64,000 nucleotides of DNA from Stegostoma tigrinum. Its lineage: Eukaryota. The notes below the pieces were generated by a model. It was not told the origin of the DNA. It did not search any database and saw only the letters and a list, made by a program, of their open reading frames with translations. Within the stretch, counting starts at the first letter, position 1, and each line of letters opens with the position of its first letter. Positions 475 to 63,130 of the stretch are shown here, one piece after another. The position numbers and the translations under genes are program-made. The stretch lies in assembly GCF_030684315.1 (NCBI RefSeq), contig NC_081387.1, forward strand, positions 7,048,497-7,112,496, in the 5' to 3' direction.

Positions 475-1300
475 TATCTCAGAGTACAATCGGCTTTTGA
501 TCAGAAGGGCCAATGGGCCAAGGAGATGGAGTTTAATTTAGATAAACGTGAAGTGCTGCATTTTTGTAAGGCAAATCAGGGTAGGACCTATGCTCTCAGA
601 GGCAATGGGAACTGCAGATGCTGGAGAATCCAAGATAACAAAGTGTGGAGCTGGATGAACACAGCAGGCCAAGCAGCATTTTAGGAGCACAAAAGCTGAC
701 TTTTTGGGCCTTATAAGGGGTCCAGGCCCGAAACATCAGCTTTTGTGCTCCTAAGAGGCTGCTTGGCCTGTTGTGTTCTTCCGGCTCCACATTTTGTTAT
801 CCAGGACTTATGCACTTATTGATAAGATCCTGGGAGTGTTGCCTAACCAAGAAGCCTTGGAATGCAGGTTCATAGTTTCTTGAAAGTGGAGTCAAGGTTA
901 GGCAGGATATTGAAAAAGGCATTTGGTATATTTGTTTTTATTGGACAGTGCATTGAGTATAGGAGTTTGGATGTCATATTACAGCTGTACAGGAATTGGT
1001 TAGTCCACTTTTGGAGTGGTGCATTCAATTCTGGACTTAAAAGGGACCGAAGTGACAATATTTTCACACAGAGGGTGGTGCACATATGGAATGTTCTGCC
1101 AAAGGAAGTGGTGGGAATTAGTACAATTACAACATTTAAAATTAATCTGGATGTATACATAAATAGGAAAGATTTAGACGGATATGAACCAAATGCTGGC
1201 AAATGGGATTAGATTAATTTAGCATATCTGGTCAGTATGGATGAGTTGGACCAAATGGCCTTTTTCTGTGCTGTACAACTACATGACACTACGATTCTAA
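475..1300 (+). mobile_element. CR1 (HER1-like) LINE 3' end
   Basis: ORF2 C-terminus KKAFG..FIGQCIEYRS..LQLY..FTQRVVHIWNVLP; interrupted by PLE 597-801. Confidence 0.88.
597..801. mobile_element. Short non-autonomous PLE F1 palindrome inserted in CR1
   Basis: Inverted arms gataacaaagtgtggagc.../...gctccacattttgttatc, 37-nt left tail, degenerate 15-bp TSD taggacctatgctct / caggacttatgcact. Confidence 0.88.
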
Positions 1301-1304
1301 GACA

Positions 1305-4300
1305 GCTAGCAATGAGACTTTATTTTTATCCTTAATGAGATGCTGAGAGACAATTTGGCATATAGGATTAATGATGTAACCATGCAAACACGCTTATTAG
1401 CTGAATCCCAACAGGACTACTAACAGGCACCACTGGATTTATCATTGGAAAATGGGGCAAGTGAAGCATATGATTTGTAGGGTATTTCAATGGAAGTGGA
1501 TACTTTGCTAATCTAGCTGAGCATGAGGAATTCCACTTAAGTAACAGCAATTGCATAGCTTCACTCAGGACATATCCTGAACAGGGGGACTGTAGGTCAG
1601 CCCACAGCAAATCCCTAAACAAATCCCAGCCTTGGCCAAATGGTTAAATTTCTCTTCAAGATCGTGGTTGGCAAACTGTTGTAGTTGCTGCTCTTGTGTA
1701 GACTTGATACAGCAAAATAGTCTCCGTCAACATAAATTGAGGAAGAGAACTCATAGGCCGGTATGCAGGAGAATGCACACCATGGAGAGGCCAACTATAT
1801 CTGATTTGGAACAGTTAAATTGCTTAGCAATTTAAACAGATCTAAATTAGAACCAACAAAATAAACATCTTGTTAATTGCTCACCCAGTTCTAATGGAGA
1901 TTAATTCTGGTATGCACATTTCCGTAATTGCAAAACCAGTTTATAACCAAATTCATTCTGGACTCCAAACCTTAAGTTTTTGCCAGACCTCGGCCATACC
2001 GTGGAACATTTATAGATTGAGTGTACAACTTTGGTTCCAGTCTCATACGAAGAATCAGCTGGTTCAGGTAACACTGATTGTAGTAAAAAGCTCAGGTCCA
2101 AGCTTGATGGAGCAAAATTGGTTGAAAGAGATTCACCTAGATTGGATCAACATTTTTCAACTATAAAATAGCCCCTTGAGCGAAGTCCTAACTAAATACC
2201 TGGAAGGTTTTCAGGAGGGTCTAGGGACTTTCAAAGGAGTCAAAGCCATCTTGTATGTTGACCAGGAAGCAATTTCACAATTCTGCAAAGCCCACCCAGA
2301 AGGCTGGAAAGTGAAGGAATCATCCAACCAGCCCAGTCTGAAGAATGGTCAGCACAAGTGATACCGATTGTGATCCTCAACAGGTCAGTTCACCTTTGTG
2401 GGAACTTTGAACAAATGGTAGACTGCTTTTCATGGCTGGATAAATACCTAGTTCTTTGCATAGTGGATTTATATGCAAAGCTGTCAGGGTGGCTGTCTTT
2501 CATGAAGCTGCACATGAGCGATGTGTACTTCCAATTGAGGCTAGATGAGGATTCCCAAAAGATTGTTACAATTCGTACCCAGAAGGGTTTGTACCAATAT
2601 ATGGCACTGCCTTTTGGGGTATTGTCAGCTTGTTCAACTTCTCGACGGATGTTTTGAAAACATTTTGAAAGGTCTATCCAAGGTCGCTATTTATCTAATA
2701 ACAGGGAAGACCAATAAGGAGAACTTACAGAGAACTTGGATATAATCCTCAGGTGTTTTTCTGAGGTGAACGTACACTCTAAAAAGGAAAAAAAGAAATA
2801 TGCTGCTTTAGGCTACAGTCAACAAGACCAGGTATACCCATTGGAAAAGAAAAAAATAAATAAAATAAGGGTGATCAAAAATGCCCCAGGTCCCATCTTA
2901 GTACCAGAGATTGGATACTTGGGCTGGTGAATTATTATGGAAACTTCATACTCAACCTTGCCTCCATCCTGGCACTTTCACTTCAACTCTTGAAAAAGAG
3001 ACAGCCTTGGAAATTGTTACATAACCAAGCCATAGCTTTCAGGGAAGTGAAGAAACAGCTATCATTCCCTAAGATGTTGGCGCACTGAGATCCAAAGCAA
3101 GATTTGGTATTGACGTGATACCTCTCCATACAGTGTCAGGATAGATGCAGAACGTAAATATACTCAGATAGAGAAGGAAGGCTTAGTGGTCAAATTATGA
3201 GTCAGCAAGTTCCACTAATGTGTAATGGTTGTAAATTTTTAACAATAACAGACCACAAACCCTGCTAGATCTACGCAAAGAGGCTGTGCCACCAATAACT
3301 TCAATCCGAATTCAGCTGTGGGCTCTTAGACTAAATGCATATAATTAAAAGTTGGAACACCATCGGGGAGGCTAAGTAGCAAATGTGGATGCATTGAGCC
3401 ACCTCCCTCAGGCGGATGTGCCACTGGTGCTACCTCCACTGGAATAGTCCACAATGTTTTTCAATTTTCTGGATACACTTCCAGTCACGGTGGACAATTT
3501 GAGACTTTGGACACAAAAAGATCTGTTGCTGGCAAAATTGAAACAGCTGGTGGTGATAAGAGAATCCAAAGTGCCATCGCAACCAGAACTGAAACCTCTG
3601 ATGCTCGGAGAGACCAGATCATAATAGAGGATGGTATATAATTGTGAACAGCAAGTGTGATTATCATGAGCATTGGGTTGCTGCCAGATTGTGTCTGAAC
3701 ATCACAAGGATTATCCAGGGATTTCCAAAATGAAGATATTTTTGAGACTTTATGACTTCTGGCCAGGACTAGACACAGACATAGCTGTGTCAGTGAGGCA
3801 GTATCCAGAGTGTCAACCAGGAGAAAAATTACTGCCAGCAGCCTCTCCACATTCATGAGGACGGCTGGATAAGCCCTGGACTTGGTTTGACTATGCTGGT
3901 CATTTCATTGTCTCATTGTTCTTAGTCAATGTGGACGTCAGTTCAAAATAGCTGGAAGTGCACATAGTTCGTTCGTCAAACAGGGGTGCAATGACAGAAA
4001 AACTGCACACATATTTTGCAATACACGGAATACCAGAAATGTTGATCGAAGATAACAGGCAGTCATGTGCCAGCAGGGAACCTAAGCATTTCCTAAAATT
4101 GAACAGTATTTACCATATAAGGAAAGCTCCATGCCATCCATCATCCAATGGTCTGGCAAAAAGAGCAGCCTAAACTTTTGAGGCAGACTCAAAGAAACAG
4201 TCTACTGCTTTAACAGATATCAAACTGCCCTGTTTCCTACTTGATTATAGGATGGCGATAATGCAACTATAATGAATAGCTCCAGCAGAGTTGCAAATGG

Positions 4301-5147
4301 GGAGAAGACTCTACACCTGGCTAAATATGATGTTCCGGAACCTTTCTGGGGTGGAGGGGACAGGAATGCCAATGTCAGACACAAGATCCCACTAAGTGAC
4401 AGACAGTTTATTCAGGGAACAAAATTTGGTATGGGAACCTCAGCAGTGGCCCTGCATGGGTAAGAGGCACGGTCGATGTGAAGATAACAAAGTGTGAAGC
4501 TGGATGAACACAGCAGGCCAAGCAGCATCTCAGGAACACAAAAGTCGATGTGAAGTCAGTCCAGGGATGCATAAAGTTCAGGTATGTGTGACGGTCCTGA
4601 ACAAGCATGTTGATCACATGAAAGCTGCAAACTCGCAAGTGGTGCAGGAACAAAGTGCCCAGCTCTCTAACTGCTTTATCAAATGTCCGAGAACCCATAG
4701 TTTCTTCCTCTCCATTAAGCATTGAAGACATCTCTTAACTAACTAGAAACAGTGGATGGCGCCACCTCAACACCTTAGTCACCTGAAAGAGGAGAATGAA
4801 TTTCTTACGAGATGCTCCGGCTGCAAGAGGAGAGTTAATATGCATTCCCGCCATCCATATCAGAGGCAGAATTAGAGGAATCTGAGCCAGTGCAAAAACA
4901 TCCCAGAGAAGGGGAGGATGCAGTCATTGCAATGAGGTCAACCAGGTGGATCTCTCAGAATACGATTCTCTTATTTGGCTGTTAATCTGATCCAATCATG
5001 GAGCCCTGCATGACAGATATTAACTGGAGTGTCAGAGAATCTGTTCACAGAGAGCTGGCTGAGGGAGCTAGATCCATGTCAACGGCTCTCCATATGTACA
5101 TGAAGGGTGACTTTGTGATGGGATACTGCAGTCTGTAGAATTAGTTA
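1305..5147 (+). mobile_element. Decayed Gypsy/Ty3 LTR retrotransposon (pol plus 3' LTR)
   Basis: RT YQYMALPFGV, integrase zinc-finger remnant H..PGISKMK..FWPGLDTDI..C, core HPSSNGLAKRA, polypurine tract agagaaggggagga 4905-4918 followed by TG (LTR ~4919-5147); many stops and frameshifts. Confidence 0.88.
4484..4543 (-). mobile_element. 60-bp PLE F1 single-arm insertion in Gypsy
   Basis: F1 arm sequence flanked by perfect TSD gtcgatgtgaag (4472-4483 / 4544-4555). Confidence 0.88.
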
Positions 5148-6928
5148 GCGTCCCTTCCTTCTTGTCTGAATATATCATGAAATGGGCTAGTAGTAATTTT
5201 AAAGAATCTTGTTTATCTTTCTGAAAATAAGCATCTAAAAAAATTGATTAAGCTCTGCTATGTACTGCTTGTGTGTTTTGTGGAGGCTCCAAGTGATATG
5301 GGAGCTGGATTATTACCTGAAAAGTGAACAAATGTACAGAGGGAAGGTGGGAGAATAGCATTAGGACATGGTCTTTTGAAGTTGCGTGCTGACATGACAT
5401 ACTCAGTGGTCGCCCTCTGTGATGTAACAGTTCTGTGATTCTGAGATATCAGTATTTTACTCGTGCACCCAGAGCGTTTCCAGTCCTCTTGAAACATTTT
5501 CTTATAAATGACACTGAAGTATTTTCACCTTAAATTATTCGTTTCAATAAAACAAAATCAGTTCTATATGCATTGCACTTGACCAAGCCATTTTGTAACC
5601 AAAGAAAGTTGCTTTTCTGTGGGTATTGTCCAAATAGTCTTTATTTGTGAAAGCAAAACAATTTTGAATACTTTGTAAAAACCAAAAGAACTACTTAACA
5701 CTTTAGGTATCAATAATTCCTTCTTATTTCACTGAACTTAACAGCAACTTGAATTCCATTTAACTTAATTATAATTTAATTCTATCAGAGTTAAATATAT
5801 AAATTAGTTTGACTTGAAACAAATGCCACCTCAATTCAAATGAAGCGGTCAACTTTTGCTCTTGGCATGGATCTTGCATCGTGATACTTTGTTGCTAAGT
5901 ATATCTGGTGAATGTGGGTCTAGAGTGTTGGTAAGGAAAAATTTCTGCGCTGTTAACTTCATTGCAAATTTCACTCAAACAAAGGATCCAGTGCACCAGG
6001 TTTTGCAAAATCACAATTTTGCCTATATTCTGTCCACGTCAGCAATTTCTTATTCAGATATTGCTTAACCAAGCTTTGCCAATCAATAGGAATCTCTAGG
6101 AATTTAATCTGTCACTTTAACTTGTGCGTTTTGCAACTGAAAATCTGCCTTTTCTTTACTGACAGTATCAAGTTTCTATATGACCTCTGCATTTTCTGAT
6201 CTCAACTCACTTATCTCAGCATTGTCCTGCCGTAACACACACACATTTCACAGACTAAGTTTGTGCAAAAAGTCAAATTCCCACAGCCATTTTCTTACAG
6301 ACCTCTTGACCAACTAACAGATAATATGGATTGCTGGGATTTGAGATATCACAAGCTTCTCAATACTTTGTGCACTTCGGAAATCTCTTATTCAAGTGTT
6401 TCTTAACCAAGCTCTCCCATTCACATTTATTGTCTGCCATGATTTCAAAGCTAAGTTCCAATGCCAAATTCAACAGCACAAAAATTCAAACGTTATGATT
6501 AAATCTAAAAATCCTTGCTTCTACCCACACTCAAATCCTGGCTGTCATGTGGGGCAGTTGCCCTCTTCCTCAGGCTCAAGCTGGATTTCTAAAAATAAAA
6601 GACTAGTAGGTTCCACTTCGGAGCAACTTAAAATTTACCTCTTATCAAAGCCCACCCAGAGGCATCAATTATCGTGGATAAATTGGCACAAGTTACCTTG
6701 AGGTTCAGCTACTGAAGAATTCACACAAACAAATACCGAAACAATGATTTAAAAACTTAATTGCAAATAAAAACCAAAATTCGACCCCCTCAAATAAACA
6801 AGTTCAGCCTCACAACTCAACTTGTTTATTGGAGATAATGGGAACTGCAGATGCTGGAGATTCCAAGATAATAAAATGTGAGGCTGGATGAACACAGCAG
6901 GCCAAGCAGCATCTCAGGAGCACAAAAG

Positions 6929-6960
6929 CTGACGTTTCGGGCCTAGACCCTTCATCAGAG
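6929..6960 (-). ncRNA. Minimal type I hammerhead ribozyme motif (PLE F1), intact core
   Basis: CU-CUGAUGA-A-GGGU(CUAG)GCCC-GAA-ACGU-C-AG: conserved core, stem II, palindromic ACGU in place of helix III; stem I only 2 bp. Confidence 0.7.
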
Positions 6961-7182
6961 AGGGGGATGGGGGGAGGGAACTGGAATAAATAGGGAGAGA
7001 GGGGGAGGCGGACCGAAGATGGAGAGTAAAGAAGATAGGTGGAGAAGGTGTGGGTGGGGAGGTAGGGAGGGGATAGGTCAGTCCAGGGAAGACGGACAGG
7101 TCAAGGAGGTGGGATGAGGTTAGTAGGTAGCTGGGGGTGCGGCTTGGGGTGGGAGGAAGGGATGAGTGAGAGGAAGAACCGG

Positions 7183-7624
7183 TTAGGGAGGCAGAGACAG
7201 GTTGGACTGGTTTTGGGATGCAGTGGGTGGGGGGGAAGAGCTGGGCTGGTTGTGTGGTGCAGTGGGGGGAGGGGATGAACTGGGCTGGTTTAGGGATGCA
7301 GTGGGGGAAGGGGAGATTTTGAAACTGGTGAAGTCCACATTGATACCATATGGCTGCAGGGTTCCCAGGCGGAATATGAGTTGCTGTTCCTGCAACCTTC
7401 GGGTGGCATCATTGTGGCAGTGCAGGAGGCCCATGATGGACATGTCATCAAGAGAATGGGAGGGGGAGTGGAAATGGTTTGCGACTGGGAGGTGCAGTTG
7501 TTTGTTGCGAACTGAGCGGAGGTGTTCTGCAAAGCGGTCCCCAAGCCTCCGCTTGGTTTCCCCAATGTAGAGAAAGCCGCACCGGGTACAGTGGATGCAG
7601 TATACCAAATTGGCAGATGTGCAG
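7183..7624 (-). pseudogene. 5'-truncated PLE GIY-YIG endonuclease C-terminus
   Basis: CTSANLVYCIHCTRCGFLYIGETKRRLGDRFAEH...VANHF...EQQLIFRLGTLQPYGIN: VY..CxxC..YIG motif with conserved R, E and N. Confidence 0.93.
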
Positions 7625-7958
7625 CCCAGCCCAGCCCAGTTCATCCCCTCCCCCCACTGCACCACACAACCAGCCCAGCTCTTCCCCCCCACCCACTGCA
7701 TCCCAAAACCAGTCCAACCTGTCTCTGCCTCCCTAACCGGTTCTTCCTCTCACCCATCCCTTCCTCCCACCCCAAGCCGCACCCCCAGCTACCTACTAAC
7801 CTCATCCCACCTCCTTGACCTGTCCGTCTTCCCTGGACTGACCTATCCCCTCCCTACCTCCCCACCCACACCTTCTCCACCTATCTTCTTTACTCTCCAT
7901 CTTCGGTCCGCCTCCCCCTCTCTCCCTATTTATTCCAGTTCCCTCCCCCCATCCCCCT

Positions 7959-7990
7959 CTCTGATGAAGGGTCTAGGCCCGAAATGTCAG
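7959..7990 (+). ncRNA. Minimal hammerhead ribozyme motif (mirror copy, ACGU changed to AUGU)
   Basis: CTGATGAAGGGTCTAGGCCCGAAATGTC at 7961-7988. Confidence 0.6.
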
Positions 7991-9208
7991 CTTTTGTGCT
8001 CCTGAGATGCTGCTTGGCCTGCTGTGTTCATCCAGCCTCACATTTTATTATCAACTTGTTTATTAACTGATTAACAGTTGAATTTAGCTACAATTCCAAC
8101 CAATAGAGCCTGTCTCTCGGTATGCCTATGTTTTGAAGCGAGCTCACTGTTGCTTTCCAAAATGCTGCTAATGAAGGGTTCTGGTGTTGGATTCTTGTAC
8201 TGAAGGACAAAACTACATGATGTGCTATAACTACCAGTTGCCCTTACAGCATAAATCAGCTATTTATCAAGCAGTTGTTAACAGTGTTGTTCATGTCGCT
8301 TTAATGTCACCTACTCCCAAAGTGGCTAATTGTTTTCAATTCCTGTATAACATTTCCCTTGTCCTTTAAGAACTTAGTCCAGACAGTTATTACTCCTTCC
8401 TTCTGTGTTTAATCCATAACTAGCTACTGAGTCCTGAAGTTCAAAATATCACAACCTTGTAACACTATTTACCTTGGTGTTCCTCTATGAATCAGTTGCA
8501 CATCTATAAACATATTGATCTATCATCTCTATACTTGAGAGTATACATTGCTTTGTCCTTTAGGGAGTGTGAGCGTGTGTGTACATTTATTTATCCAACA
8601 TTTCTGCATGTGTGTACACATCCACCTCTATCCATCAATTTAGATGTGTGAAATGCAAACATACTGGAATCATATTAAAAATTAAAATGACATTCAACTG
8701 AGCTTCCTCACAGCAGGAATGAAGGTCAGATGATTAGAAAAAAACCCTGACACAAAGTCAAAGTCAATCAAAAAAAAATAGCTTCCAGTTGCGGATGTTC
8801 TTGTCATGAATTAGGGTGAGAACAGTCTGGTCAGCTCATGTGGTTCGAGTGTCTGATGAACAAATGGTCTTTCTGGAGCATTCTGGGATCAACGAAAAGC
8901 GTTGTGAAGTCTGCTTAAAAGCATCTTTGAAACAGTGCAAGCTGTACCTTGGTATTTGGAAATGCATTGTTCAAGATTCGAAATTATGAGAGCAAAAGTC
9001 AGCTCTGAAGAGGTCTCCAACTGTGAAGCTGTTCACTTTGCAAAGCAACAGTTACATTAAACAGCAGCAGCAAAGTCTGGTTTGAAACATCAGGATCCCA
9101 AATAGCAGGAACTGGAATCTCTTATTCAATCAATGGAAGCACAATCCCAGTAATGATCAAACCAAGGAGGAGTGGATGGGTTGGAAGATGAACACTTCAC
9201 TTACTGAG

Positions 9209-9240
9209 TCATGAAGGAGCGAGAACAGTGACATCAGAAG
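9209..9240 (-). pseudogene. Candidate terminal coding exon ((T)SDVTVLAPS*) followed by putative 3' UTR
   Basis: Strong acceptor cctttttttctttttattttcccag, SDV motif resembling class I tails, stop at 9209-9211, minus-strand AATAAA near 8586-8591. Confidence 0.35.
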
Positions 9241-10019
9241 CTGGGAAAATAAAAAGAAAAAAAGGTGAGGTATTCAAAATCAACCATGGGGCCCAGGATT
9301 TATTCACTTCCCAGCATTAACTAAAAAGATTTTAAAATGATGATTGTGAAGAGAATACAGACTAGAAAAAAAAAGGCAGGGGCAGTCCAAATTGGTACAG
9401 CCCCAAATCAGTGATTCCAAATTTTGAGAAGTCAGGTATTGAAGTGAGGAAATCAACACTGCGTCCATTATATTCCATAGAACTGACTGATATTCTCTGG
9501 AATTGAGAATAATGTAGGGTAATCCCATTGACAGGTAAACACATCTGAAGATTTGAGAGATGGCATGAGTTACATCTTGGCTACAAAGTCAAGAACTAGC
9601 GTACAAGTTCATCTAGTTGGAAGTGAGCTGAGAAGAAACTTCTTCACTGAAGATTATTAACCATTGGAGCATTCGCACCCCACAGCACTCACTCGTTGAG
9701 TATATGAGAGATGGGGGTTGGTACACTCTGAATCGTAACAGCAGCAGATAGAAGGCAGTCTGCTCAACTCTGTTGATTCTATGTGAAGCAATCCAGTCAG
9801 TTTCACTTGCCATTCTTTAACCCCAACCTTGCAATCCCATTTATTTCCAGTGCATATCCAATTTTAATTGGAAATTGTTGCTTATTTCTGCTTCCATCTC
9901 TCCAGTAAGGAGTGAGTTGATAGTCATTACATTCTCTGTGCAAAAAAATAGTCTTCTCAACTCCCTTTTTTCTCTTAGCCAAAATCTTGAACTTGCGGCT
10001 CCACCTTCCACCTACAAGC

Positions 10020-10342
10020 AGAGAGGGATTCTACATGGAAGCAGGCCACTTGGCCCATCAAATCCACAGCACCATTCTGAATAGTATCCCACCCAGGCCC
10101 GCCCTCTCTATCCTGTACCTCAGCATTTCCCATAGCTAATCCACCCAGCGTGCACGTTCCTGGACCACGCACCTGGCTGCACATGTTTTGCCTGTGGGAG
10201 GAAACAGGAGCACCCAGAGAAAACGCCCGTGACACAGGGAGAACATTATACTCCACACAGACAGACGCACAAAGCTGGAATAGAATCTGGGTCCCGGGGG
10301 CTGCAAGGCAGTAGTGCTAACCAATGAGCTACTGTAACACCC
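10020..10342 (-). mobile_element. tRNA-derived SINE (HE1-like)
   Basis: Reverse-complement similarity to 165-470. Confidence 0.78.
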
Positions 10343-11473
10343 TGGTCCTTGTACGAACCAGTAAGGAGTTCCTTGTCCTTCTGTACCATACCTAATCCTA
10401 TCATAATCTCGTGCACCTCTATTAAAGCTCCCCCAGTCTCCGCTGTTCCAAAAAGAAATAGCCCACCTTTTCTAATTTAAACTTGCGGATAATGTCTTTC
10501 ATCACTAGAACTATTCTTGCAAACTTCCTCTTCAATCTCAAAACACCCTGAGTTCCGTTGTGGAAGGTGATCTGGAAGCAATATTACAGTTGTGGCATAT
10601 GAATTGGAGCAGGGGTAGACCACTCTGTCCATTGTGGCTGCTCCGTCACTAAATTAAGTGAGTGACTGCAACCATAAATTCACATTCCTGCCTACCAATC
10701 AAAACATTTCACTCTCATTTAGTGAGAATCTAACTACCTGCATACATTTGCCTGAAAAATAGTCACAGACTCAACTTCAAATTCAAGGATTCTGTTATAA
10801 GTACCTGAGCGTTCGAAAGGGTCATAATCCTGAAAGGAAAGAGGAGCCTAATCTGTTCTTAAATGAGTGAACAATAGTTTTCTTTTTTTAACAGAAAGCC
10901 TCGACTTCAATTCTCCCTGGAGAAGAAACATTTGTTCCACATCTACCCTGTCAAGACCTCTCAGGATCTTATATTTCACTCCAGAGAACTAATCACATTT
11001 TGTAAAGATTTAGTTAGCATAAATTCTCTGCAATATCTGTATTTAACGACAACCAAGTTTCCACATGCCTTGCTCACCACTCTCAGACTTGCATGCTAAA
11101 GTCAAGAATCAAAATCTATGTGTTTCCAGGTCTGCTATTCCTGCATAATGCTCAGAATTATGCCGTTACAATTACATTTTAACTCTGACTCTTCTTCCAA
11201 TCATGTCAACTCAGACTTCTCTGCACCACATTCCATCTGCCACTTGTCTAGCCATTAGCTAGTCTAAGCCCTATTGCAGTTACTTCGTATAATTCTTACT
11301 GCATTTATCACTTCTCCAAAATTAGTTTTGGTGGCAAACTTTTAAATTTCAACTTGCATCACCATATTCAAATTATTTATATAGGTCGACAAAAGTGACG
11401 GTGGAGTCACTGATCCTTAGGAAGCAGCACTATCACTCTCCAGCCTGAAAAAAACCATTAACAATGAGTCAAA

Positions 11474-11660
11474 GATAACAAAGTGTGAAGCTGGATGAAC
11501 ACAGCAGGCCAAGCAGCATCTCAGGAGCACAAAAGCTGATGTTTCAGGCCTAGACCCTTCATCAGAGAGGCTCCTGGGATGCTGCTTGGCCTGCTGTGTT
11601 CATCCAGCTTCACACTTTATTATCTTGGATTCTCCAGCATCTGCAGTTCCCATTATCACT
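11474..11660. mobile_element. Short PLE F1 palindrome (tail on right)
   Basis: Inverted arms, antisense hammerhead remnant 11538-11565, tail ttggattctccagcatctgcagttcccattatc. Confidence 0.88.
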
Positions 11661-12267
11661 CAGCAATTCCTCGTCATTTTTTCCCCATTCTCTCACACAC
11701 ATGCACACACTCGCAGACGCACACAATCTTCAAACAAACTGCACCTTCAGTCACTTGCTGCAAGCTGTTGTTTAAGTCATCCTTGGCAAATCTGTAGAAG
11801 CAAAATAAATGTCACTTAGAACGGGGGATAACCCATTATCAGAGAATGTGAACAAAGCAGTGTGTTCGAATGTAGATTATGAAATAAGTGTAACAGATCA
11901 AGAGACAGAAATAAACTTTTGAAGTCTACAATATTCTTTTAAAAAAATAGGCTTATGCACTAAGTACAAACCATTAATGATCACCATTTTAAAATATAAA
12001 ATAACAACCAGAACCTGATAATTCATTTTAAATTATATGTAGTAGGGTTGACTGAATGACTAACAACACAAAAGACATAACACAGCCACAGTCAAAACAT
12101 TTTAGAACCATCAAATTCATTGTCATCAGCACGTGTTAACTCAGCATTCTGAGTTATTTTCGGCTATAACATCTCTGTCGTGTCCAGCAACAGGGATTTC
12201 ACGTGCTACTCACACTACATCTCAACAATACCTAGGCAGAAACACTATATGATGAATACCCACCTAC

Positions 12268-12370
12268 TTTTCATCTTCTGGGCTCGGAGAACTTTTCCGC
12301 CTTCTCTACAGAATTCCATATTGGAAACAACAAAACTCTCAATGTCCTTTGGCCTCAGCTTCGGTCTGGG
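12268..12370 (-). pseudogene. Candidate class I cytoplasmic exon B (PRPKLRPKDIESFVVSNMEFCREGGKVLRAQKMK)
   Basis: Acceptor ttttatttaatcag, donor A|GTAGGT, open in phase 0 to 1, apparently non-repeat sequence. Confidence 0.3.
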
Positions 12371-14353
12371 CTGATTAAATAAAATTGCTCAACTCTGATT
12401 CAGTTTGTAGAGCCTCAATAAAGGCAACTTAAAAATGTTTCTCAGCTACTTCATTCAACTCTCGTGAACTCTCTGCAATGTTTACATTCAATCTCATAAC
12501 TGTAGTTAAAGTTATGATTTGACCGGGAGGTTCTTTTATAAGCTCATTTCTTGGACATATTCCTAAGAACTTCAATAAGGCCTGAAAATACATCCACACA
12601 AAATTGCAACTTTCTGATTGAAGATGTCACTATGGAAACACTTTGACCTTTGATTCTCAATTCCACCCCCAGCAGATTAAAGTTGGAGGAAACATTGCTG
12701 GCTCATTCCCAATTGTCTCTTTGGCTGGCTTACATGCCTTCCTTTTACTGTACTGTTTTTATCCTTTTTGGTTTTGTGGAGTGGGGGACTGTAAGACCCA
12801 AGAGTAGAATTAGACCATTTAGCCCATCAAGCCTGCTCCACCGTGTGACCACAGCTGATTTGAGAACAGGAGAATGATTTTGGTTTGTGGATCACTTCTA
12901 CTGTCAGCTAGCTCACTGCCCATTTAGCTGTTGCAACATAAATTCCACGTACTGTTCTGTTCAATTCATCTGTGTGAATAATTTCCAAGATCTTCAGCTC
13001 TTGATTCCTATAAACCAGTGAAATTGCTTGGCTTTACGCTTTCAAGTTGAATTTGAGTCTGCCCAATATGTTTCCACAAGTTTTTTTTTTAAAAAAGTGT
13101 CATAATCCACCAAAAACTTTCCCAGAAGGAGCTCTATCTGTCCAGATGCTCTGCAAGGTCAATAATCAAATTTACCTCCCGCTGAGCATTTTTTCATTCA
13201 AGTATTTTTTTCTAAACAGTATAAAGCAATGCCTCTACATCTTTTTCCTGAAATTTTGATCAGAATTGTACAAATTTAAAAAAATGAGAGGAGGGAAAAA
13301 AAATAGAAAAATTTCCCTGCCTGGGCTTTGGGTCATGGCCAATGTGTTTTTCTTCCTCATCAGAATCACCTTTTTCAATAGCAACAGTTATTGGCAGTCC
13401 CTCATTTTTTTTGAGGTTTTGCAATTCTAATTCAAGCCTCTTTCTCTTTTTCCTTCTGTCTCAAGTCAAAATTCAAGCCTTTCATTTCCGTTTCCCTTTG
13501 TATTTCCATTTACCTTTCCATCATGTCCTTGGACCAGTACCTGGTCTTTCTCCCATTTCTACTACTCTTAAATTCTATGGTAATATTTCAATCACCTGAC
13601 TTCTTGGCTTTTGCAGGAAATCTCACCTTTCACTCCTTTGTCAATTACCTAAATCTTGTAAACCAGTCAAGGATAAGCCCATCTTTAAAAGAGGGAGTTT
13701 CAGCTACTTCAAAAAGAACATTTTAATGTTTTAGTAAGAAAAACCCAGTATGTGTCCTTTTGTACTTTACAAGTTACAATTATTCAAGTCCAATTTCATG
13801 CTCTGCATCCAGTCCCTACACTGGGGCCCAAACTTTGTTATGACTCGGACATAAAGGAGTGCAGTTGTAATTAACCACCCCACAAACTGTTCCAAAAGGT
13901 TCAAATGTTTCATTTTTACCAAAGTTGTCAAGTTGTTTCATTTTAATATTGCTATCTACAACTAAATACTGCCCGAGGTTTCTTCAATCAGCTCAAAAAT
14001 ACTTTGTTTAATAAAAGTTAAATGATTTAAACAGGTGGCAAAACTGGTTATCAACTACAGTACTGTGCAGAATAAATGATATTCCTTCAATCCCAAATAC
14101 ACACACCCTGACACATAGAGAGTGCAAGGACTCTGCAGAGATATTATGGGTTTGAAAATAAAAGGGAAGAAAGCAGCCACATCACTGTCAGACATGGGTG
14201 CAAATTTAGCTGATTCAATAGGTTTGATTATCAGTTCCTTTGATGCCTGTCAATAAGCTCCAGTTGCTGATAGTCTCAGAATTATGGAAGACACTTGACA
14301 GTCCTGGTATTTATACAGTCATAGAGCATGAAAACAGACCCTTCACTTCAAAC

Positions 14354-14567
14354 AGAGATAGTAGGAACTGCACATACTGGAGAATCTAAGAGAACAAGGT
14401 GTGGAGCTGGATGAACAAAGCAGGCCAAGCAGCATCACAGAGCAGGAAGGTTGACGTTTCGGGCCGAGATACTTCTTCATTTCTGAAGGGCATAGGCCTG
14501 AAACGTCAGCTTTCCTGCTCCTCTGATGCTGCTTGGCCTGTTGCGTTCATCCAGCTCTACACCTTCG
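14354..14567. mobile_element. Short PLE F1-related palindrome in a CR1 3' end
   Basis: Inverted arms with two decayed hammerhead halves (gacgtttcgggcc / ggcctgaaacgtc) and a left tail. Confidence 0.82.
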
Positions 14568-16213
14568 ATTCAACTATATTTCATCCATCATCCCCAAATT
14601 AAATTAGTCCCGCCTGCTGACTCTTGGTCCACATTTCCTAATCATGTACTTACCGAAATGTTTTTTTAAGTGTTTTAACTGTACGGCCAACTTCTTCTGC
14701 AAGTTCATTCCATATACAAACAACACTTTGTAAAAAAAGTTTTAAAAAAAAGGCCCTTATATCTTCTAAAGCTTTCTCTTCTCATCTTGAAAATATGCCC
14801 CGTGGTCTTGAAATGACCCATCCTACAGAAAAATATACCTGCCATTCACTGTGTATGTACACCTCATGACTTTATAATCCCCTGCAAAAGGGCATCGCCA
14901 ACCTCTTACGCCCCATTGAGAAATGTCCCAGCCTCTCCGGCTTCTCCTTATAACTCAGATGCAGCCACCATTCCCAGCATCATCCTGGTAAATCTCTTCT
15001 GAGCCCTTTACGCAGTTTAATAATATCCTTCCCACAACAGGCTGACCAGAACTGGGCGCAGTACTCCAGAAGAGGCCTCACCAATGTCCTGTACAGCCTC
15101 AACATGACGTCCCAATTCTTACGCTCGAAGGTCTGAGCAATAAAGGCAAGCATGGTAAATTCCTTCTTAACCAGACTGTCTACCGGAGATGCAAGATTCG
15201 AAGAATTGTGTATTTGAATCCCTAGGTCTTTCCATTCAACAACACTGCCCATGTCCCCATTTTAATTGCAGAAATCCAGCCGGTTTGTCTTTCCAAAACA
15301 TAATATCTCACATTTTGCCAAATTAAACTCCATCTGCCATTCTTGAGCCAATTGACCCAATTGATCAAGATCTTTGTAATCTTAGATAACCTTCTTCACT
15401 GTCCACTTCACCAATTTTGGTGTCACCCGCAAATTTACTAACCACACCTATATTCTCATCTAACTTATTTATATAAATGACAAACAAAAGTAGACGGAGC
15501 ACTGATCCCTGTGGACCGCTGCTACTCACAGGTCTCCAGTCCAAAAAAAAATCAGTCTGTCTCTTGCCATTAGGAGAACGTTGTATTCAATTGGCAAGCT
15601 CACCCTGAATACCATATGATCTATCTTAACTAATTAATCTACCATAGAGAACCTTGGGAAGGCTTTATTAAAGTCCGAGGAAACAATGTCTACCGCAGTG
15701 CCCTCATCATTCATTTTGGTAACTTCATTAAAAGGAAAATTTCACTCAATCAAGTTTGCAAGTCACAATTTCCCTTGCACAAAACCATGCTGATGACGCC
15801 TCATCATTCCTCGCCTGTCTAAAGGCATATAAATCCGTATACTTCAGAATCACTTCCACCAACTTATTCACCAACGTCAGACTCACGGGTCTAATTCTTC
15901 TCCTTACATCCGTTCTTTAAAAACCACATTAGCCACTTCAGTTTTACGACACCTCCTACACAGCTATAGATAATACAAGTGTTTCTGCAAGTGGCCCCAT
16001 AATGTCCTCCCTAACTTCCCACAATGTCCTGGAATACAGACGATAGGTCCCAGGAAGTTATCACCTTTGTATTTCTTCCAGCACTTCCTCTTCTGTAAAA
16101 TGAACTGTCTTCCAAATAGCAATGTTTATTTCTCTGAATTATCTGGCTTCTGTTTTTTCCTCAACAGTAAAAATGGATACAAAATGTTCACTTAATACCT
16201 CTCCCATTTCCTG

Positions 16214-16975
16214 AGAACAAAGAACAAAGAAAATTACAGCACAGACACAGCCCTTTGCCCTCCAAGCCTGCGCCAATCCAGATCCTACCTAAACCTGTCA
16301 TCTATTTCCTAAGGATTTGTATCCCTTTGCTCCCTGCCCATCCATGTACCTGTCCAGATACATCTTAAAAGACACTATTGTGTCTGCGTCTACCACCTCT
16401 GCTGACAATGCATTTCAGGCACCCACCACCCTCTGTGTAAAGAATTTTTCACGCATATCTCCCATAAACATTCCTCCTCTCACTTTGAACTCATGACCCC
16501 AAGTAATTGAGTCCCCCACTATGGGAAAAAGCTTCATGCTATCCACTTTGTCTATACCCCTCATGATTTTATAGACCTCAGTCAGGTCCCCCCCTCAATC
16601 TCCATCTTTCTAATGAAAATAATCCTAACCTACTCAACCTTTCTTCATAGCTCGTGCCCTTCATACCAGGTAACATCCTGGTGAACCTCCTCTGCACCCT
16701 CTCCAAAGCATCCTTTGGTAATGTGGCGACCAGAACTCTACACAGTACTCTAAATGTGGCCAAACTAAAGTCTTATACAACTGCAACATGACCTGCCAAC
16801 TCTTGTACTCGATACCCTGTCCGATGAAGGAAAGCATGCCGTATGCCTTTTTAACCGCTCTATTGACCTGCGTTGCCACCTTCAGGGAACAATGGACCTG
16901 AACACCCAGATCGCTCTGTACATCAATTTTCCTCAGGACTGTTCCATTTGCTGTACAGTTCGCTGTTGAACTAGA
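16214..16975 (-). mobile_element. Younger CR1 3' end nested in older CR1
   Basis: VKKAYGMLSFIGQGIEYKS..LEYCVEFWSPHY; terminal gaacaaa repeats at 16214-16230. Confidence 0.85.
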
Positions 16976-19445
16976 AGATGGCCTCTTTCATCTTTAAGGG
17001 GCACTACTCTCCCTCAATTTGTTCCCTTGCTCTTAATGCACTTGTAGACACTCTTGGGGTTATCTTATCTTTATTTGCCAAGGCTATCTCATATCCTCTC
17101 TCTGCATTCCAGATTTGCCTCTTGAGAATACACCTTAAAACACCACTTTAACTCCAAGAGATTCATTAGAAGCCAGTTCTCTATACATAATATGTGATTC
17201 ATTTTTATTCTTGCCGAGAATCTCAACACCTTTGTTAATCTTTGTTCTCTAATCATACATGCCTTGCATTTCACTCCAACAGGAACTTAATTCTGGACAC
17301 TTGTCACCACACTTATAGACAATAGACAATAGGTGAGTAGGCCATTCATTATGATCATGGCTGATCATCCACAATCAGTATCCTGTTCCTGCCCTATTCC
17401 CATAACCCTTGATTCCACTATCTTTAAGAGCTCTATCTATCTCTTTCTTGAAACTATCCAGAGACTTGGCCTCCACTGCCTTCTGGGGCAGAGCATTCCA
17501 TATATCCACCACTCTCTGGGTGAAGAAGTTATTCCTCAACTCTGTTCTAAATGGCCTACCCCTTATTTTTAAACTGTGTTATTTATTTATTTGTGTCTTC
17601 CTTCACTCACTTAAGTATGAAAGCCTCTCACTTACAAAATATTCCTTTCCCTGCAAAGTCAATTCCAAGCAACGTTTCCAAGTTTTTCTCTCATTCCATT
17701 AAAATTTGCCCTACTCCAATAGGAAAAAAAAATCATTGTTTTAAAACTGTTTTAAAATGAATAGAATTCTAATTCCTAGACTCAACGTGTTGCCCTATCA
17801 CCCCAGTCACTTGCCCTGTCTTATTACAGAAGGAAGTCAGGTTTTGCTCCTTCTGTAGTAGCAACACTCACATATGGTTAAAGAAAAAGTTCTTGGACCA
17901 TATTTAACCAGTAGGATATCCTTTACTGTCACGTGTACTCCAGTAGAGGAATGGTGCCATTTTAGGTACAAAGTACTGAGGTAGAAATCTTGGATACAAA
18001 ACAAGAATAAGTCAAAAGTGAAAAATAAGATAGAAGATAGGTACAATTCTGCACCATCCAAATCTCTAACAATGTGGCTGCTCCAATCAACGTTTGGAAA
18101 GTTAAAAATCACCGACTATCACTGCGTTATTATTCTTACATACATCAGAGATATCTCCCCACATTTGCTCCTCAATTTCCCTTTGGCTATTGTGGATACT
18201 ATAGCACAATCTAAGGGTGAGAATTCCTTTCTTATTTCTAATGTGAACCTATCTATTTTCACTGGTCAATTTTTCAGAGATATCTTCTCTAGTTACAGCA
18301 GTAATGTTTTTCTTAATCAAAACTTTCTCCTCTTTTACCTCTCCTTCTATCCTTCCTCTAGCATCTGAAACCCAGAACACTGAGCTGCCAGGCCTGTCCA
18401 TCTCTCAGACAAGTTTCTCTAACAGCAATGACATCCAAATCCCATGTTCCCAAACATAGAGTTCATCAGTCTTACCTGTAAGATCACTTGCTATGAAATA
18501 TATTCAGTTGAATTCTTCAGAATAACTTATTCTCTGAAATGCTCGTGTCTGTCTTTTCTAACTAACGCGTTCTTTTCAGATTCAAAAGCCCTCCGCATCT
18601 ATCTTTATATTTACTTTACTACTTAGGATCTCTCCACACCCCCTCTCTTATAGATTTCCATCTCTGTTAATAGAATTAGGAAATCTGCCTGCTCGGATAT
18701 TGGTCCTTTTCCAATACAGGCCAAACCCACCTTTTTTAAATTGGTCTTTTCTGCCCCAGAATAGATCTCAATGATCCAAGAGCCTGAATCCCGGAACATC
18801 ATGCCACCTCCGATTTATCTCCTTTATTCCTTCCCTCATTTAAGCTTGGTGTTGGGAGTAAACCAGAGATTACTACTTTTGAGTTCCCGTATTTTTTTTA
18901 AATCTTCTCCCTAACCTCTTATATTCAATCTGTAAAGTATTAACCTTTTTCCTAACGATATCTTTCTTAGCAAGATGTATAATAACTTATGGCTTCTCAC
19001 GCTCATCTTTAATTGCATGTTTCAAATGTTTTGGGAGGTCCTTAATCCTGGCCCCAGGAAGGCAACCTAAGATCCTAGATTCATGCTCGCTGCCACAAAA
19101 TCTCCTGTCTGTGCCATTAAGAGGACAGTCCCTTATAACAATTACTCTGAAATTTGTCAAACCCTGCCTGACACAAGATTCATTTTTAATGCCCAAAATC
19201 TGACTGCTTTTCTATTTTTTCGCTGAAGGACTATCACTATCCTTTCCAACAGTACTTAAAACAGAGTATCTGTTTGAGAGGAGAGTAGGAGGCTTCTGTA
19301 CTATCTCATCCTTCCTGACACAGTCACCAATCTATCTGACTGAGCCTGCTGTGTAATCACTTTGCTAAATCTACTGGTCATCTGAGTCTGTGTCTCTTGT
19401 ATGCCTTAGATGACATTAACTCTAAAACAAAGCAGCTTTCACTAG

Positions 19446-19628
19446 GAGAGATAATAGGAACTGCAGATGCTGGAGAATCTGAGACAACAAAGCGTAGAGC
19501 TGGATGAACACAGCAGGCCAAGCAGCATCAGAGGAGCAGGAGAGCTGGCGTTTGAGGCCTAGACCCTTTTCTGCTGCTAAGATGCTGCTTGGCTTGCTGT
19601 GTTCATCCAGTTCTACACTTTGTTATCT
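19446..19628. mobile_element. Short PLE F1-related palindrome
   Basis: Inverted arms, left tail, perfect TSD agctttcactag (19434-19445 / 19629-19640). Confidence 0.88.
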
Positions 19629-19942
19629 AGCTTTCACTAGCATCTTATTTATAAAATAAACTACCGTTCCTTACCCAAAGAATTAATACCAAGCATGCAA
19701 AAAGAAGTGTATAAAATCACTTAGCTGATCAAGTTAAAATATGACTTCTCCTCAAGAGGCTCAGCAGATAGCTTTTAATCTTCTGATTAAAAAAACCCTC
19801 ACTCCAGGGCCATGTGGAGGCCTCTGCAAAAGCTCAGTTTTTAAAAAAAAAACTGTCCTCTGCAATTTAAAACAAAATCTCTTTAGCAATGGTACATTAA
19901 AAAAAGTCTCCTTCTAGGCCATTAACACCATTTGCAAAATAC

Positions 19943-39736: not shown

Positions 39737-39892
39737 ACTTTTGTCAACTATAATGCAAAAGTTGTCACGAATTTTTGTCCACTCCATTCCCACGGAAGTT
39801 ATCCACAAACTTTGTCAGCACGAATGTTATCTAGTAAGATTAATTATCATTTAAAAGACCTCAGAACATAACCAATTATCAATTCAGATCCC

Positions 39893-48063: not shown

Positions 48064-51000
48064 CATATCAGGACAGTAGGAATGCATCCTAGAGGGAAAT
48101 CAGGAGGCCAAAAAGGTGCCATGAATTAACTTTGGCAAATACCATTAAGAAGAATACAAAAAGATTCTACAAATACATTAAGGTCAAAAGATTAACGAAG
48201 GAAAGAATATGGCCACTCAAATATCAATAAGGTTGTCTACATGTGGAATTGCAGGAGATATTTGAGATATAAATGAACATTTTGCATCAGTATTTACTGT
48301 GGAGAAGGATATGGAAACTAGAGAATGTGGAGAAACATATAATCACAGAGAGCAAGAATGGCAGATGCTGGATCCAGAGTCAACACAGTGTGGAAGTGGA
48401 GGAACACAGCAGGGCAGGCGGTATGAGAAGAACAGGAGAATCAACGTTTGGGGCTGGGACCCTTCATAAAAGCTGGGGAAGGGGAAGGGAGCTGGGAAAT
48501 AGATAGAGGGAGGATGGGTGGGGCTGGGGAAAGATTGGTGTGATGTTGATAGATGGATGCCAGTAGGGAGTAGTGGGGACTATTCAGTCGGAATGGTGGG
48601 GTGGATAGGTGGGGAGGAAGATGGACAAGTTGAGTCAGGTCAAGGAGGCAAGAGGGAGGAATGGTGCTCTGGGAGGGAACGTGGAATGGTGATCAGTGAA
48701 TGCAGAAAGGGGGTAGTAGGGATGGATCAGTGGGAAGAGTGGGGCAGATAGATGGGACAGAAGATGGACAGCTTGTGTCAGGTCAAGGAGGCAGGGATGA
48801 GGGGGAGGTTGGACATGGGATGAGGCTGGGTGATGGGAGTTTGTAAAACTGGTGAATTATATGCTCAGGCCTTTGGGCCATAGGCTTATGAGGTGGAATG
48901 TGAGGTTTTGCTTCTCCAGTTTGCAGGTGGTATCATTGTGCGCTGGAAGAGGCCCAGGGTGGGCATGTCATCTGTGGAGTGGGAGAGGGAGTTAAAATGG
49001 TTAGCAACTGGAAGGTTTTGTTGATTATTGTGTCCAGAGGGCAAATTGTCCAAGAATCAACCCCCAAGTCTTTGCTTCGTCTCACCGATGTAAAGGTGGC
49101 TATATTGGGAGCAATGGATACAGTCAACCATGTTGGTGAGTGTACAGGTGAACCCCTTTCAGATATGGAATGTTTGTTTTGGGCCTTGGAGGTGAGAGGG
49201 GAGGTGGAGGTGCAGGTGTAGCATTTCCTGCAGTTCCAGGAAAAGGTGCCAGGTGTGGTGCAGCTAGTGAGGAGTGTGGAGCAGACAAGGGAGTCATGGA
49301 ATGAATGGTCCCTACAAAAGACAGATAGGGGTGGGAAAAGAAACATCCCTTTGATGGCAGGGTCGGATTGTAGATGGCAGAAGTGGCAGACATGCTAAAT
49401 GCCGAATTGGTGGGGCAGTATGTGAGGACAGGGGTATTCTGTATTTATTTTTCTTGGGGAGAGGTGGTTTGAGGGTGGAGGTGCAGGAAATGCAAGAGAT
49501 GCAGTTGAGGGCACTTTTTTGATCAATGGAGGGGGGATGTTGCAGCCCTTGAAACAGGAGGACATCTAAGATATTCGGGAGTGCAATGTTCCATCTTGGG
49601 AGCAGACTTGCCGAAGGTGGTGGCATTTGGAGTAAAGGTTAACATTCTTCAGGAGGGTGGGTGAGAGGAGGTCTAGTCCTGGTAGCTATGGGAGTTGATC
49701 GGTTTGAAACATACTATGTTATCTTGCAAAGTGTCCATATTACAGAAGATGTTGCGTTGTACAACTTAAGATGCATAAAGGTGGATTAATGCATTTCTGA
49801 AGAAGGGTCCTGACCTTAAACATCAACTTTCCTGCTCCTCTGATGCTGCCTGGAATGCTGTGTTCCTCCAGCACCACACAGTGTTACCTCCAATTCCAAC
49901 ATCTTCAGTTTGTACTATCTCTTAAAGTGCGTAAAGTTAGATTAATCCCTTGGAGCTAATCGCATGTCTCCCAGAACTTTGTGGGAAGATAAAGAAGTAG
50001 TTGTTGGGCTCATTGGTGAGATCCTTGTATCATCACTGGCCACGGAAGAGATTCCAGAAAAACAGATAGTGGCTAATTTGGCCATTACATCTGAAATTTG
50101 GTGGGGAGATGCCAGGAAAATCTTGACTGATGAGTCTGACATCAGTGTTAGTTGCTGGAGGAGATTCTGAAAGACAGGATGTACATGTATTTGTAAAGGT
50201 TAAGACTGAATAGGGATAGTCAACATAGCATTGTGTGTGGGCAATTGCGCCTCTCTAACTTGATTGAAGAAGCAGCAAAAAAGGATCGCTGAAGGCAGAG
50301 TGGTGGACGTTGTCAGTATGGGCTTCAGCAACACATTTGACAAGGTTCTGCATGGTAGACTGGTGGGCAAGGTTAGTCACATGGAGTCCAGGGAGAGCTA
50401 GCCAATTGGATAAAGAATCGTCTTGAAGGTTAGAGAAAGAAGGTGGTAGTGAGGAGTTGTTTGATGGGTCCAAGGCTTATGAGCAATGGTGTGCCACAAA
50501 GATTGGAGCTGGGTCCAGTGTTTTTCATCATTTATAAAAATGAGTTGGATGTGAATAAAGGAGGAATGGTTCGTAAGTTTGCAGATGGCAAAAAAAATTG
50601 GTGGGGTAGTGGACAATGAAGAAGGTTACCTCAGAGCCAACAGGATTTTGATTGGATTGACCAATTGACAGTGAGTGGCGCATGAAGTTTAATTTAAATG
50701 AATTTGAGGCACCTCTGCAATCAAATACCCTTCCCCCAATAAAAATAAAGACAGAGCTCCCCCAGGTCTTCACATACCACCCCACTCACCTCCACATCTA
50801 GTATATCGTCCTCCCCCACTTTTCCCACTGACAATACGACCCTACCACCATAGAGATATTTAGTAAAGCAAAAGCACAGAACTTATACAGTGATGGTAGG
50901 GACTGGTGCACATTTCCAAACAAAGAGGATCAACTTTCCTTGAAGGTAAATTCACATTTAGAGCAGTGAGGAACAATTCAGTACACTTGCCTTTATTGGT

Positions 51001-62785: not shown

Positions 62786-62825
62786 TCCGGATGTAGGCTG
62801 GTTCACTCAGCTGCAAGGTTCATTC

Positions 62826-62865
62826 CCAGACGTTTCATCACCATTCTAGGTAACCTCATCAGTGA
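62826..62865 (-). ncRNA. Minimal type I hammerhead ribozyme motif (PLE F3)
   Basis: UCA-CUGAUGA-G-GUUACC(UAGAAU)GGUGAU-GAA-ACGU-C-UGG: intact core, stems I and II. Confidence 0.75.
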
Positions 62866-63090
62866 GCCTCTGATGAAGCGCTGGTGTTATGTCCCGCGTT
62901 CTATTTATCTGTTTAGGTTTCCTTGTGTTGGTGATGTAATTTCCTGCATTGGTGATGTCATTTCCTCTTCTTTTTCTCAGAGGATGGTTCGATTGACTCC
63001 AAATCAATGTGTTTGTTGACATCACCAACCCAAGGAAACCTAAACAGATAAATAGAAAGCGGGACATAACACCAGCGCTTCACCGGAGGC

Positions 63091-63130
63091 TCACTGATGA
63101 TGTTACTTAGAAAGGTGATGAAACGTCTGA
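63091..63130 (+). ncRNA. Minimal type I hammerhead ribozyme motif (PLE F3)
   Basis: UCA-CUGAUGA-U-GUUACU(UAGAAA)GGUGAU-GAA-ACGU-C-UGA: 3-bp stem I UCA/UGA, intact core. Confidence 0.78.

Follow-up and report, generated by a model that had tools for sequence, protein, structure and literature searches.

Small palindromes in a shark genome as probable stubs of a Neptune-type Penelope-like element assembled from two separately primed copies

Introduction

A repeat-rich 64,000-nucleotide stretch of the Stegostoma tigrinum genome (NC_081387.1, positions 7,048,497 to 7,112,496; this whole stretch is called the window, and all coordinates refer to it) harbours a family of small repeats, F1, whose arms match the 3′ end of a Penelope-like element (PLE) and often stand in inverted pairs. 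We conclude that these small palindromes are probably stubs of the 3′ (pseudo-long terminal repeat, or pseudo-LTR) end of a Neptune-type PLE, each assembled at its site from two separately primed complementary DNAs (cDNAs) joined head to head. The architecture is for the most part already known for PLEs, of which F1 presents a miniature version: an inverted, 5′-truncated copy with an optional tail of 30–40 nt is standard PLE structure (PMC3846280, PMC8557442, PMC8969392). The novelty that a model-made reading of the same sequence, the first-pass annotation, had attached to it was overstated.

Architecture of the F1 loci

A blastn and profile search across the window recovered 17 F1 arms, arranged as five two-armed loci (E1, E3, E4, E5 and E6) and seven single arms (E2 and E7 to E12). 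All five two-armed loci carry their arms with the 3′ ends outward, and none has symmetric inverted repeats reaching both ends, one end being 32–37 nt longer than the other in every copy. The shorter arm stops at a TTATC site (E3 coordinate 6867 ± 1) in E1, E3 and E6, as do the single arms E2, E8 and E9; in E4 it possibly continues up to 8 nt beyond this site, and in E5 it ends about 5–9 nt before it. Tail-bearing arms, which comprise the left arms of E1, E3, E5 and E6, the right arm of E4, and E7, E10 and E11, reach 32–37 nt past the site.

The centres of the five two-armed copies all differ: the junction has 1–3 shared bases in E1, E4, E5 and E6, and in E3 about 6 nt of filler that duplicates the adjacent pentamer. 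Flanking duplications were scored against 1,494 random site pairs, none of which scored as high as the 14/14 duplication of E3; the fraction scoring as high was 0.0007 for each of the 12/12 duplications of E2 and E6, and 0.007 for the 14-bp duplication of E1, which has two mismatches. These duplications of 12, 12, 14 and 14 bp have different sequences, and no short fixed length is apparent. Arms of the same locus also resemble each other: the two arms of E3 are identical at 420 of 422 positions, whereas the nearest other copy, E7, differs from them at 15–17 sites, and pairing sister arms gave 51 subfamily-state agreements versus a mean of 37.6, the best of 120 possible pairings, with 2/120 scoring as high. 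No column distinguished tail-bearing from short arms in this comparison. The five different centres and the states common to sister arms therefore support the building of each palindrome at insertion, in keeping with what the first-pass annotation had proposed from its observation, which also holds, that the central junction varies. The arms of E6 have conflicting states at three subfamily-diagnostic columns despite the exact 12-bp duplication around them, possibly through decay or through the use of two template RNAs in one event.

Whether one arm could be a copy of the other was judged from their inner ends. Positions within arms are counted from the predicted hammerhead cut, +1 being the first base 3′ of it (6930 in the left arm of E3), and on this scale the left and right arms begin at −13 and −27 in E1, −694 and −358 in E3, −32 and +10 in E4, −26 and −33 in E5, and −21 and +3 in E6 (some of these refined by eye). 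If a single cDNA folded back and primed its own extension (snap-back), the second arm would be a DNA copy of the first. Such an account would accommodate the near-identical arms of young copies and the short overlaps at the centres, and it fits E3 and E6, in which the tail-bearing arm contains the whole of the other arm. In E1, E4 and E5, however, the tail-less arms extend further 5′ (−27, −32 and −33) than the tail-bearing arms (−13, +10 and −26), and the tail is on the latter only, such that in three of the five two-armed copies each arm has sequence without a counterpart in its partner. Neither arm can be a copy of the other there, and snap-back of a single cDNA was rejected for these copies; a later central deletion could mimic the pattern but would be needed in all three. 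The private sequence in each arm of E1, E4 and E5 therefore argues for two templated syntheses rather than for snap-back, which we regard as very improbable for the family.

Individually, E1 (583..816) is a 205-bp insertion at 597–801 with its tail-bearing arm on the minus strand (711 to about 597), its short arm on the plus strand (710–801) and duplication copies at 583–596 and 803–816. E2 (4472..4555) is a single tail-less arm of 61 bp (4484–4544, minus strand), which lacks a hammerhead and is flanked by its exact 12-bp duplication; the degenerate sequence around it (about 1700–5000) resembles, by eye, an LTR-retrotransposon pol region. E3 (6817..8064) is the longest two-armed copy, a 1,222-bp insertion at 6831–8052 within an exact 14-bp duplication; its tail (6831..6866, minus strand) adds about 35 nt beyond the inner end point to just one of the arms, with depth steps at 6832 and 6867, and its short, tail-less arm occupies 7631..8052 on the plus strand. 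The left flank of E3 (6790–6830) is apparently multi-copy, the same substitution at 6805 being present in 18 contigs and in all 10 reads there. E4 (11474..11661, 188 bp) has its tail-less arm on the minus strand and its tail-bearing arm on the plus strand, E5 (14340..14573; 210-bp insertion at 14353–14562) belongs to an older subfamily and has a marginal 12-bp duplication, and E6 (19434..19640) is a 183-bp insertion at 19446–19628 with an exact 12-bp duplication.

Among the single arms, E7 (35560..36069, minus strand) is long, tail-bearing and 96% identical to E3. An 11-nt word in its tail flank (35547–35557) also occurs in the short-arm flank of E4 (11464–11474) in the opposite orientation, through target preference or chance. 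E8 (39000–39104, minus strand) and E9 (39889–40082, plus strand) are tail-less and without a detected duplication; a joint origin of the two as one insertion was rejected, as there is no duplication and their subfamilies differ. E11 (54891..54981, plus strand) is tail-bearing and starts 6–9 nt 3′ of the predicted cut. E12 (from 48346, about 1.4 kb, minus strand) is an old, tailed arm that reaches into the reverse transcriptase (RT), and E10 (49792–49922, plus strand), also old and tailed, stands back to back with it (span 48346..49922).

The first-pass annotation had described one architecture at six loci, which it saw as tiny elements of 180–210 bp with, where two arms are present, one arm stopping at or within a few nt of the TTATC site, a partner arm about 36 nt longer, and duplications of 12–15 bp on most copies. 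Its coordinates are correct and the two-armed layout holds for E1, E3, E4, E5 and E6, E2 having one arm; the size applies to four of the six loci, E2 and the 1.2-kb E3 being the others. The offset between arms is indeed 32–37 nt, with the short arms of E4 and E5 ending near the TTATC site as described above, and duplications are clear in four of the six loci at 12–14 bp, marginal in E5 and absent from E4, with no case of 15 bp.

The parent element

The long arm of E3 runs on into an open frame with the GIY-YIG motif of PLEs. This C-terminal endonuclease of the parent element (7285..7624, minus strand) ends abruptly at the E3 centre; it matched PF01541 with an E-value of 0.00027 (21.6 bits, below the gathering cut-off of 22.6), and the fragment is 96% identical to the zebra-shark RT-endonuclease (RT-EN) protein LOC125456532 and 92% identical to a whale-shark protein; both species are Orectolobiformes, which by itself makes a carpet shark the likely host. 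As the endonuclease is contiguous with the arm and so close to a zebra-shark RT-EN, the arms belong to a Penelope-like element, and the RNA-derived origin claimed in the first-pass annotation is borne out. In shark relatives of this endonuclease, RT, thumb and endonuclease lie within one open reading frame (ORF); one of them at 92% identity, P0003, scored above the Pfam cut-off for GIY-YIG and matched RVT_1 with an E-value of 9e-5 (below cut-off). Degenerate RT sequence also lies upstream of the endonuclease in E12 and E13, while E3 itself ends before the RT.

E3 stops downstream of the linker between RT and endonuclease, and the linker was read from the shark relatives. A CX2-5CxxC finger is present in P0003, P0014 and P0018 and degenerate in P0002, and a linker of this kind is a mark of Neptune and Nematis (PMC8557442). 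By the linker of its relatives, the parent element is probably a PLE of Neptune (or Nematis) type. No F1 copy in the window extends past the tail, and a tail-region peptide search returned four predicted proteins that are apparently spurious read-throughs, none continuing into the RT ORF of the parent PLE; the metagenome contigs searched held no relative of the shark RT-EN. A related Neptune-type family is present at 41133–42465 and 44940–45722 as two long outward arms, 78% identical and about 2.5 kb apart, of which one reaches into the RT; no duplication was found around the pair.

The family across the genome

Four of the 23 listed public runs, three of contigs (from organisms A, B and D) and one of bisulfite-treated reads from organism A, were aligned to the 321 nt at 6790–7110 at 80% likeness. 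F1 is very abundant, judged from its share of reads rather than from a copy number: 61,956 of the 12,836,656 bisulfite records in run X22 (0.48%) fell on this stretch. Depth rises in steps at 6832 and then at 6867, 609 contigs of run X1 depart at 6866 into unrelated flanks (agreement 0.39), and in X9, from a second organism, 13 contigs depart at 6832 and 10 at 6866. The depth steps and contig departures therefore indicate that both end points are fixed and common to a second species. The ratio of tail to core depth was 0.43 in X22, 0.38 in X1 and 0.30 in X9, which is near one tail per two arms; genome-wide, the tail is on about 30–45% of arms. Run X13, with just 52 records, carries little weight.

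Small palindromes are common in the reads, although library chimeras are possible among joint reads: the opposite-strand joints listed for X22 fall into 11 classes with 1,168 reads, 351 of them in the top class. Eight of these 11 coincide on both sides with C-to-T conversion edges, versus 15% of background pairs, and the other three do so on one side. The X22 joint clusters, which resembled shared centres, were on these grounds rejected as junction positions, and the loose ends of X22 were set aside likewise. In the unconverted X1 contigs, the 11 opposite-strand joints listed had a depth of 0–12 in 0–2 contigs, a count that is incomplete, with 295 further joints beyond those listed.

A size of 183–210 bp, inverted arms and the high copy number implied by 0.48% of X22 reads are all what one would see in miniature inverted-repeat transposable elements (MITEs) mobilised by a DNA transposase. 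Against such an origin, the ends are asymmetric by about 35 nt, the duplications are long and variable (12–14 bp), the arms derive from an RT-EN element's 3′ end, the single arm E2 has a duplication of its own, and the centres vary. A MITE family would have a uniform centre; all five centres in the window differ, and the joints seen genome-wide are hard to read, being affected by bisulfite conversion and counted incompletely. A MITE-like subfamily with one shared centre may exist elsewhere in the genome, but for F1 as a whole we consider a transposase origin extremely improbable.

Hammerhead ribozyme and 5′ ends

A minimal type-I hammerhead is predicted on the minus strand at 6929..6960, in the left arm of E3, with its core at 6958–6931 and the cut between 6931 and 6930. 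The predicted fold has a 4-bp helix II with an extra unpaired base, a palindromic helix III and a helix I of 2 bp, and the F1 motif displays the PLE hallmarks of an unpaired base before helix II, a G10.1–C11.1 pair and a palindromic helix III. A minimal-hammerhead descriptor gave eight hits in the window, versus 0.4 in 50 shuffles, of which five are in F1 arms, two in a second family, F3, and one in F4. By this descriptor, the F1 pseudo-LTR contains a predicted ribozyme of the kind that characterizes endonuclease-bearing (EN+) PLEs. Rfam returned no hammerhead in the window at E-values up to 1, its two microRNA matches lying far below their gathering scores, and the exact 23-nt core pattern had no match in viral or metagenome contigs. 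The core is intact in both arms of E3 (the second at 7961) and in the left arm of E4 (11565), mutated in the short arm of E1 and damaged in both arms of E5. The family had first been described as hammerhead-bearing, a term that suits these three of the 11 arms at E1 to E6 and one of the four tiny palindromes, but not the other eight arms and three palindromes.

The 5′ ends of the arms gather near this predicted ribozyme. Twelve of the 17 arms begin between −34 and +10 and the other five are long, the interval from −35 to −136 being empty (several ends were read by hand, and very short arms are harder to detect). Four arms begin at +3 to +10, the tail-bearing arm of E4 starts 9–10 nt and E2 2–3 nt 3′ of the predicted cut. 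In X1, depth stays at 0.81 of its peak up to 6943, falls to 0.29 by 6966 and then remains at 0.29–0.36 in the bins tabulated beyond, with 580 contigs departing at 6959 into unrelated sequence (agreement 0.37), and in X9 it drops to about 0.1; part of this drop may be due to subfamily divergence upstream of the ribozyme and to contig-edge effects. The predicted cut position was fixed before joints at 6930 were counted. Four of the 12 filler-bearing X1 joints listed (12 of 80) depart exactly there, an excess with a binomial probability of 1e-4 for one position among 46 if the rows are independent, which two of them may not be. The six X1 loose-end rows listed do not include position 6930, and ends at the predicted cut are therefore a minority. 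Together, stubs may end at the predicted ribozyme more often than random breakage would produce. Head-to-tail-like joints from mid-arm (6901–6930) back to the tail end (6832–6875) were also seen, one at a depth of 210 and several beginning exactly at the predicted cut, which suggests head-to-tail tandems of short units, the kind of joint being inferred.

We tentatively suggest, while regarding it as rather doubtful, that the stubs are complete run-off copies instead of random truncations: the PLE protein would prime twice, on opposite DNA strands, at a pseudo-LTR near the 5′ end of the RNA, and each copy would run to a defined terminus, either the hammerhead cut or a start site some 33 nt ahead of it. 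A polymerase stall at the ribozyme or at a C-rich tract, or a short non-autonomous master, fits the 5′ pile-up equally well. For the Poseidon_Ac element of Anolis, uncleaved RNA was the main substrate in vitro and no RNA reads ended at the ribozyme cut (PMC11167929); Fig. S2 of that paper, in which genomic copies are plotted as coverage along the template, may already bear out or contradict a pile-up of 5′ ends.

The short master, either an entire mini-palindrome or a solo pseudo-LTR about 130 nt long, would be transcribed and moved by the PLE protein as a family resembling short interspersed nuclear elements (SINEs) or retrozymes, with some palindromes copied as units. The steep loss of depth over 6944–6966 followed by a plateau, together with the departures at 6959, fits such a defined 5′ end, the joints that link 6901, 6911, 6920 and 6930 with the tail end suggest short units in head-to-tail order (again, the joint kind is inferred), and vertebrate retrozymes derived from PLEs are known (10.64898/2026.07.22.740005). 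All five centres differ, however, several subfamilies are involved, the layout is identical in the 1.2-kb, endonuclease-bearing E3, and the opposite-strand joints listed for unconverted contigs have the low depth given above, although short contigs may not split. We consider a short master unlikely.

Assembly at the insertion site

By analogy with Poseidon_Ac in vitro, the endonuclease would nick both strands about 12–14 bp apart, and each nick would prime reverse transcription at one of the two internal RNA sites that bound the tail, one start site being used per strand. The two cDNA ends would then be joined by micro-homology end joining, and gap filling would yield the duplication. Less firmly, the small size of the stubs might reflect a polymerase that either stalls at the ribozyme or reaches a nearby 5′ end of the RNA and runs off; such an end could be the predicted cut or a transcription start some 33 nt upstream of it. 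The Poseidon_Ac protein cuts and extends both strands, and its two internal RNA starts are the tail bounds (PMC11167929). Of the two priming events put forward in the first-pass annotation, one internal and one at the RNA end, the number agrees with the private sequence in E1, E4 and E5, but a start at the RNA end is unsupported: both Poseidon_Ac starts are internal, in a Drosophila PLE the 34-bp repeat coincides with the ORF start (PMC2377424), and transcription starts in the upstream pseudo-LTR (PMC2377424, PMC6765202).

Several observations weigh against assembly from two primed cDNAs or leave it less well supported. Centres and duplications rest on five two-armed copies. E4 has no duplication (0.42 of random site pairs score as high), that of E5 is doubtful (12 bp with two mismatches, overlapping the arm; 0.03 score as high), and none was found for the single arms E8 to E11. 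No more than about 45 nt separates E12 and E10, which stand back to back, have old states in common, are both tailed and lack a duplication; they may be one insertion with tails on both arms, an exception to the one-sided tail. The sister-arm test would be passed equally by several palindromic subfamilies, and the X22 joint classes are uninformative for or against shared centres. Hammerhead pairing over 10 arms, at 88.6%, exceeds that of slid controls (9–47%) but is not above shuffles (88.0%). Finally, the protein studied in PMC11167929 is a Poseidon, not a Neptune, and its start sites are alike on both strands, which leaves a rule of one tail per pair without an explanation there.

Other repeats in the window

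The first-pass annotation had placed two further families beside F1. This is upheld for F3 (61075..63216; insertion at 61084–63207), a two-armed member of a second PLE family; its right arm bears a 36-nt tail, and an exact 9-bp duplication flanks the insertion. A Tx1/L1-like long interspersed nuclear element fragment of about 1.65 kb, with ZCCHC3-type RNA-binding domains, interrupts the left arm. Compared with the right arm, the inner part of the left arm agrees at 104/111 positions as far as two bases past the predicted cut and at 28/42 beyond it, and the outer piece at 53/59. The fragment seems to be flanked by a duplication of 16 nt, and its first 42 nt seem to belong to another F3 subfamily, beginning at the cut, as if ribozyme cleavage at a donor site had produced the 5′ end of its RNA; this is a single case. 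Older single arms of the F3 family are present at 36299–36421 and 43995–44082 (71–75% identical). F4 (55010), which has a hammerhead-like motif, was rejected as an unproven member of the F1 architecture: its inverted repeat is weak (70%, E = 0.001), the extension read by eye measures about 80 nt, and no duplication was seen by eye, the duplication test not having been applied there. A tRNA gene or tRNA-like sequence lies at 37862–37933 (56.9 bits in Rfam).

Discussion

PLE integration is poorly understood, and F1 offers a very large set of short insertions that show both priming sites, the cDNA ends and the nick spacing at each locus; such loci could tell if an insertion draws on one RNA or two and if RNA cut by the ribozyme serves as a template in vivo. 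If stubs do prove to be run-off copies, the shark genome would preserve, as a fossil record of very large size, where PLE transcripts start and where hammerheads cleave in vivo, and pairs of mixed subfamily, E6 among them, would show a protein dimer using two RNAs. MITE-like repeats in shark annotations may also be PLE stubs; the first-pass annotation had warned of such misassignment. Judged by titles and the beginnings of abstracts, with subscription papers and Repbase thinly covered, the literature held no report of MITE-sized shark PLE palindromes or of arm ends bounded by a ribozyme.

In the twin priming of L1, two primers from staggered nicks give an inverted product with micro-homology at the junction, and the arms copy different parts of one RNA from a variable second start. 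F1 differs in that both arms copy one stretch from two fixed starts. Non-LTR retrozymes, which consist of PLE-derived units in direct tandem, each carrying a ribozyme, resemble F1 in being small, non-coding, hammerhead-linked and derived from pseudo-LTRs (10.64898/2026.07.22.740005); unlike them, E1 to E6 are inverted pairs or single arms instead of tandem units, with an intact core in 3/11 arms. Metazoan PLE minimal hammerheads have an extra base between positions 9 and 10.1, a G10.1–C11.1 pair and a palindromic helix III, and dual motifs 100–700 bp apart on opposite strands were noted earlier in Schistosoma (PMC4209133). Compared with these motifs, that of F1 has a helix I of just 2 bp, as in D. 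virilis, and its core is lost or mutated in most tiny copies. Canonical EN+ PLE insertions (PMC3846280; PMC8557442, Fig. 2; PMC8969392) have, like F1, a 5′-truncated copy with an inverted neighbour, a 30–40-nt tail at one end, a variable duplication and overlap at the junction. Most F1 copies, in contrast, are two arms of 54–130 nt without an ORF, their number is far higher, and their duplications measure 12–14 bp versus 8–10 bp in Adineta PLEs. Poseidon_Ac differs from F1 in that the F1 parent has a Neptune/Nematis linker, in that some F1 arms and joints start at or just after the predicted cut, and in that inverted pairs, present in F1, are not treated in the main text of PMC11167929; like F1, it has two fixed 3′ end points 30–40 nt apart downstream of a minimal hammerhead.

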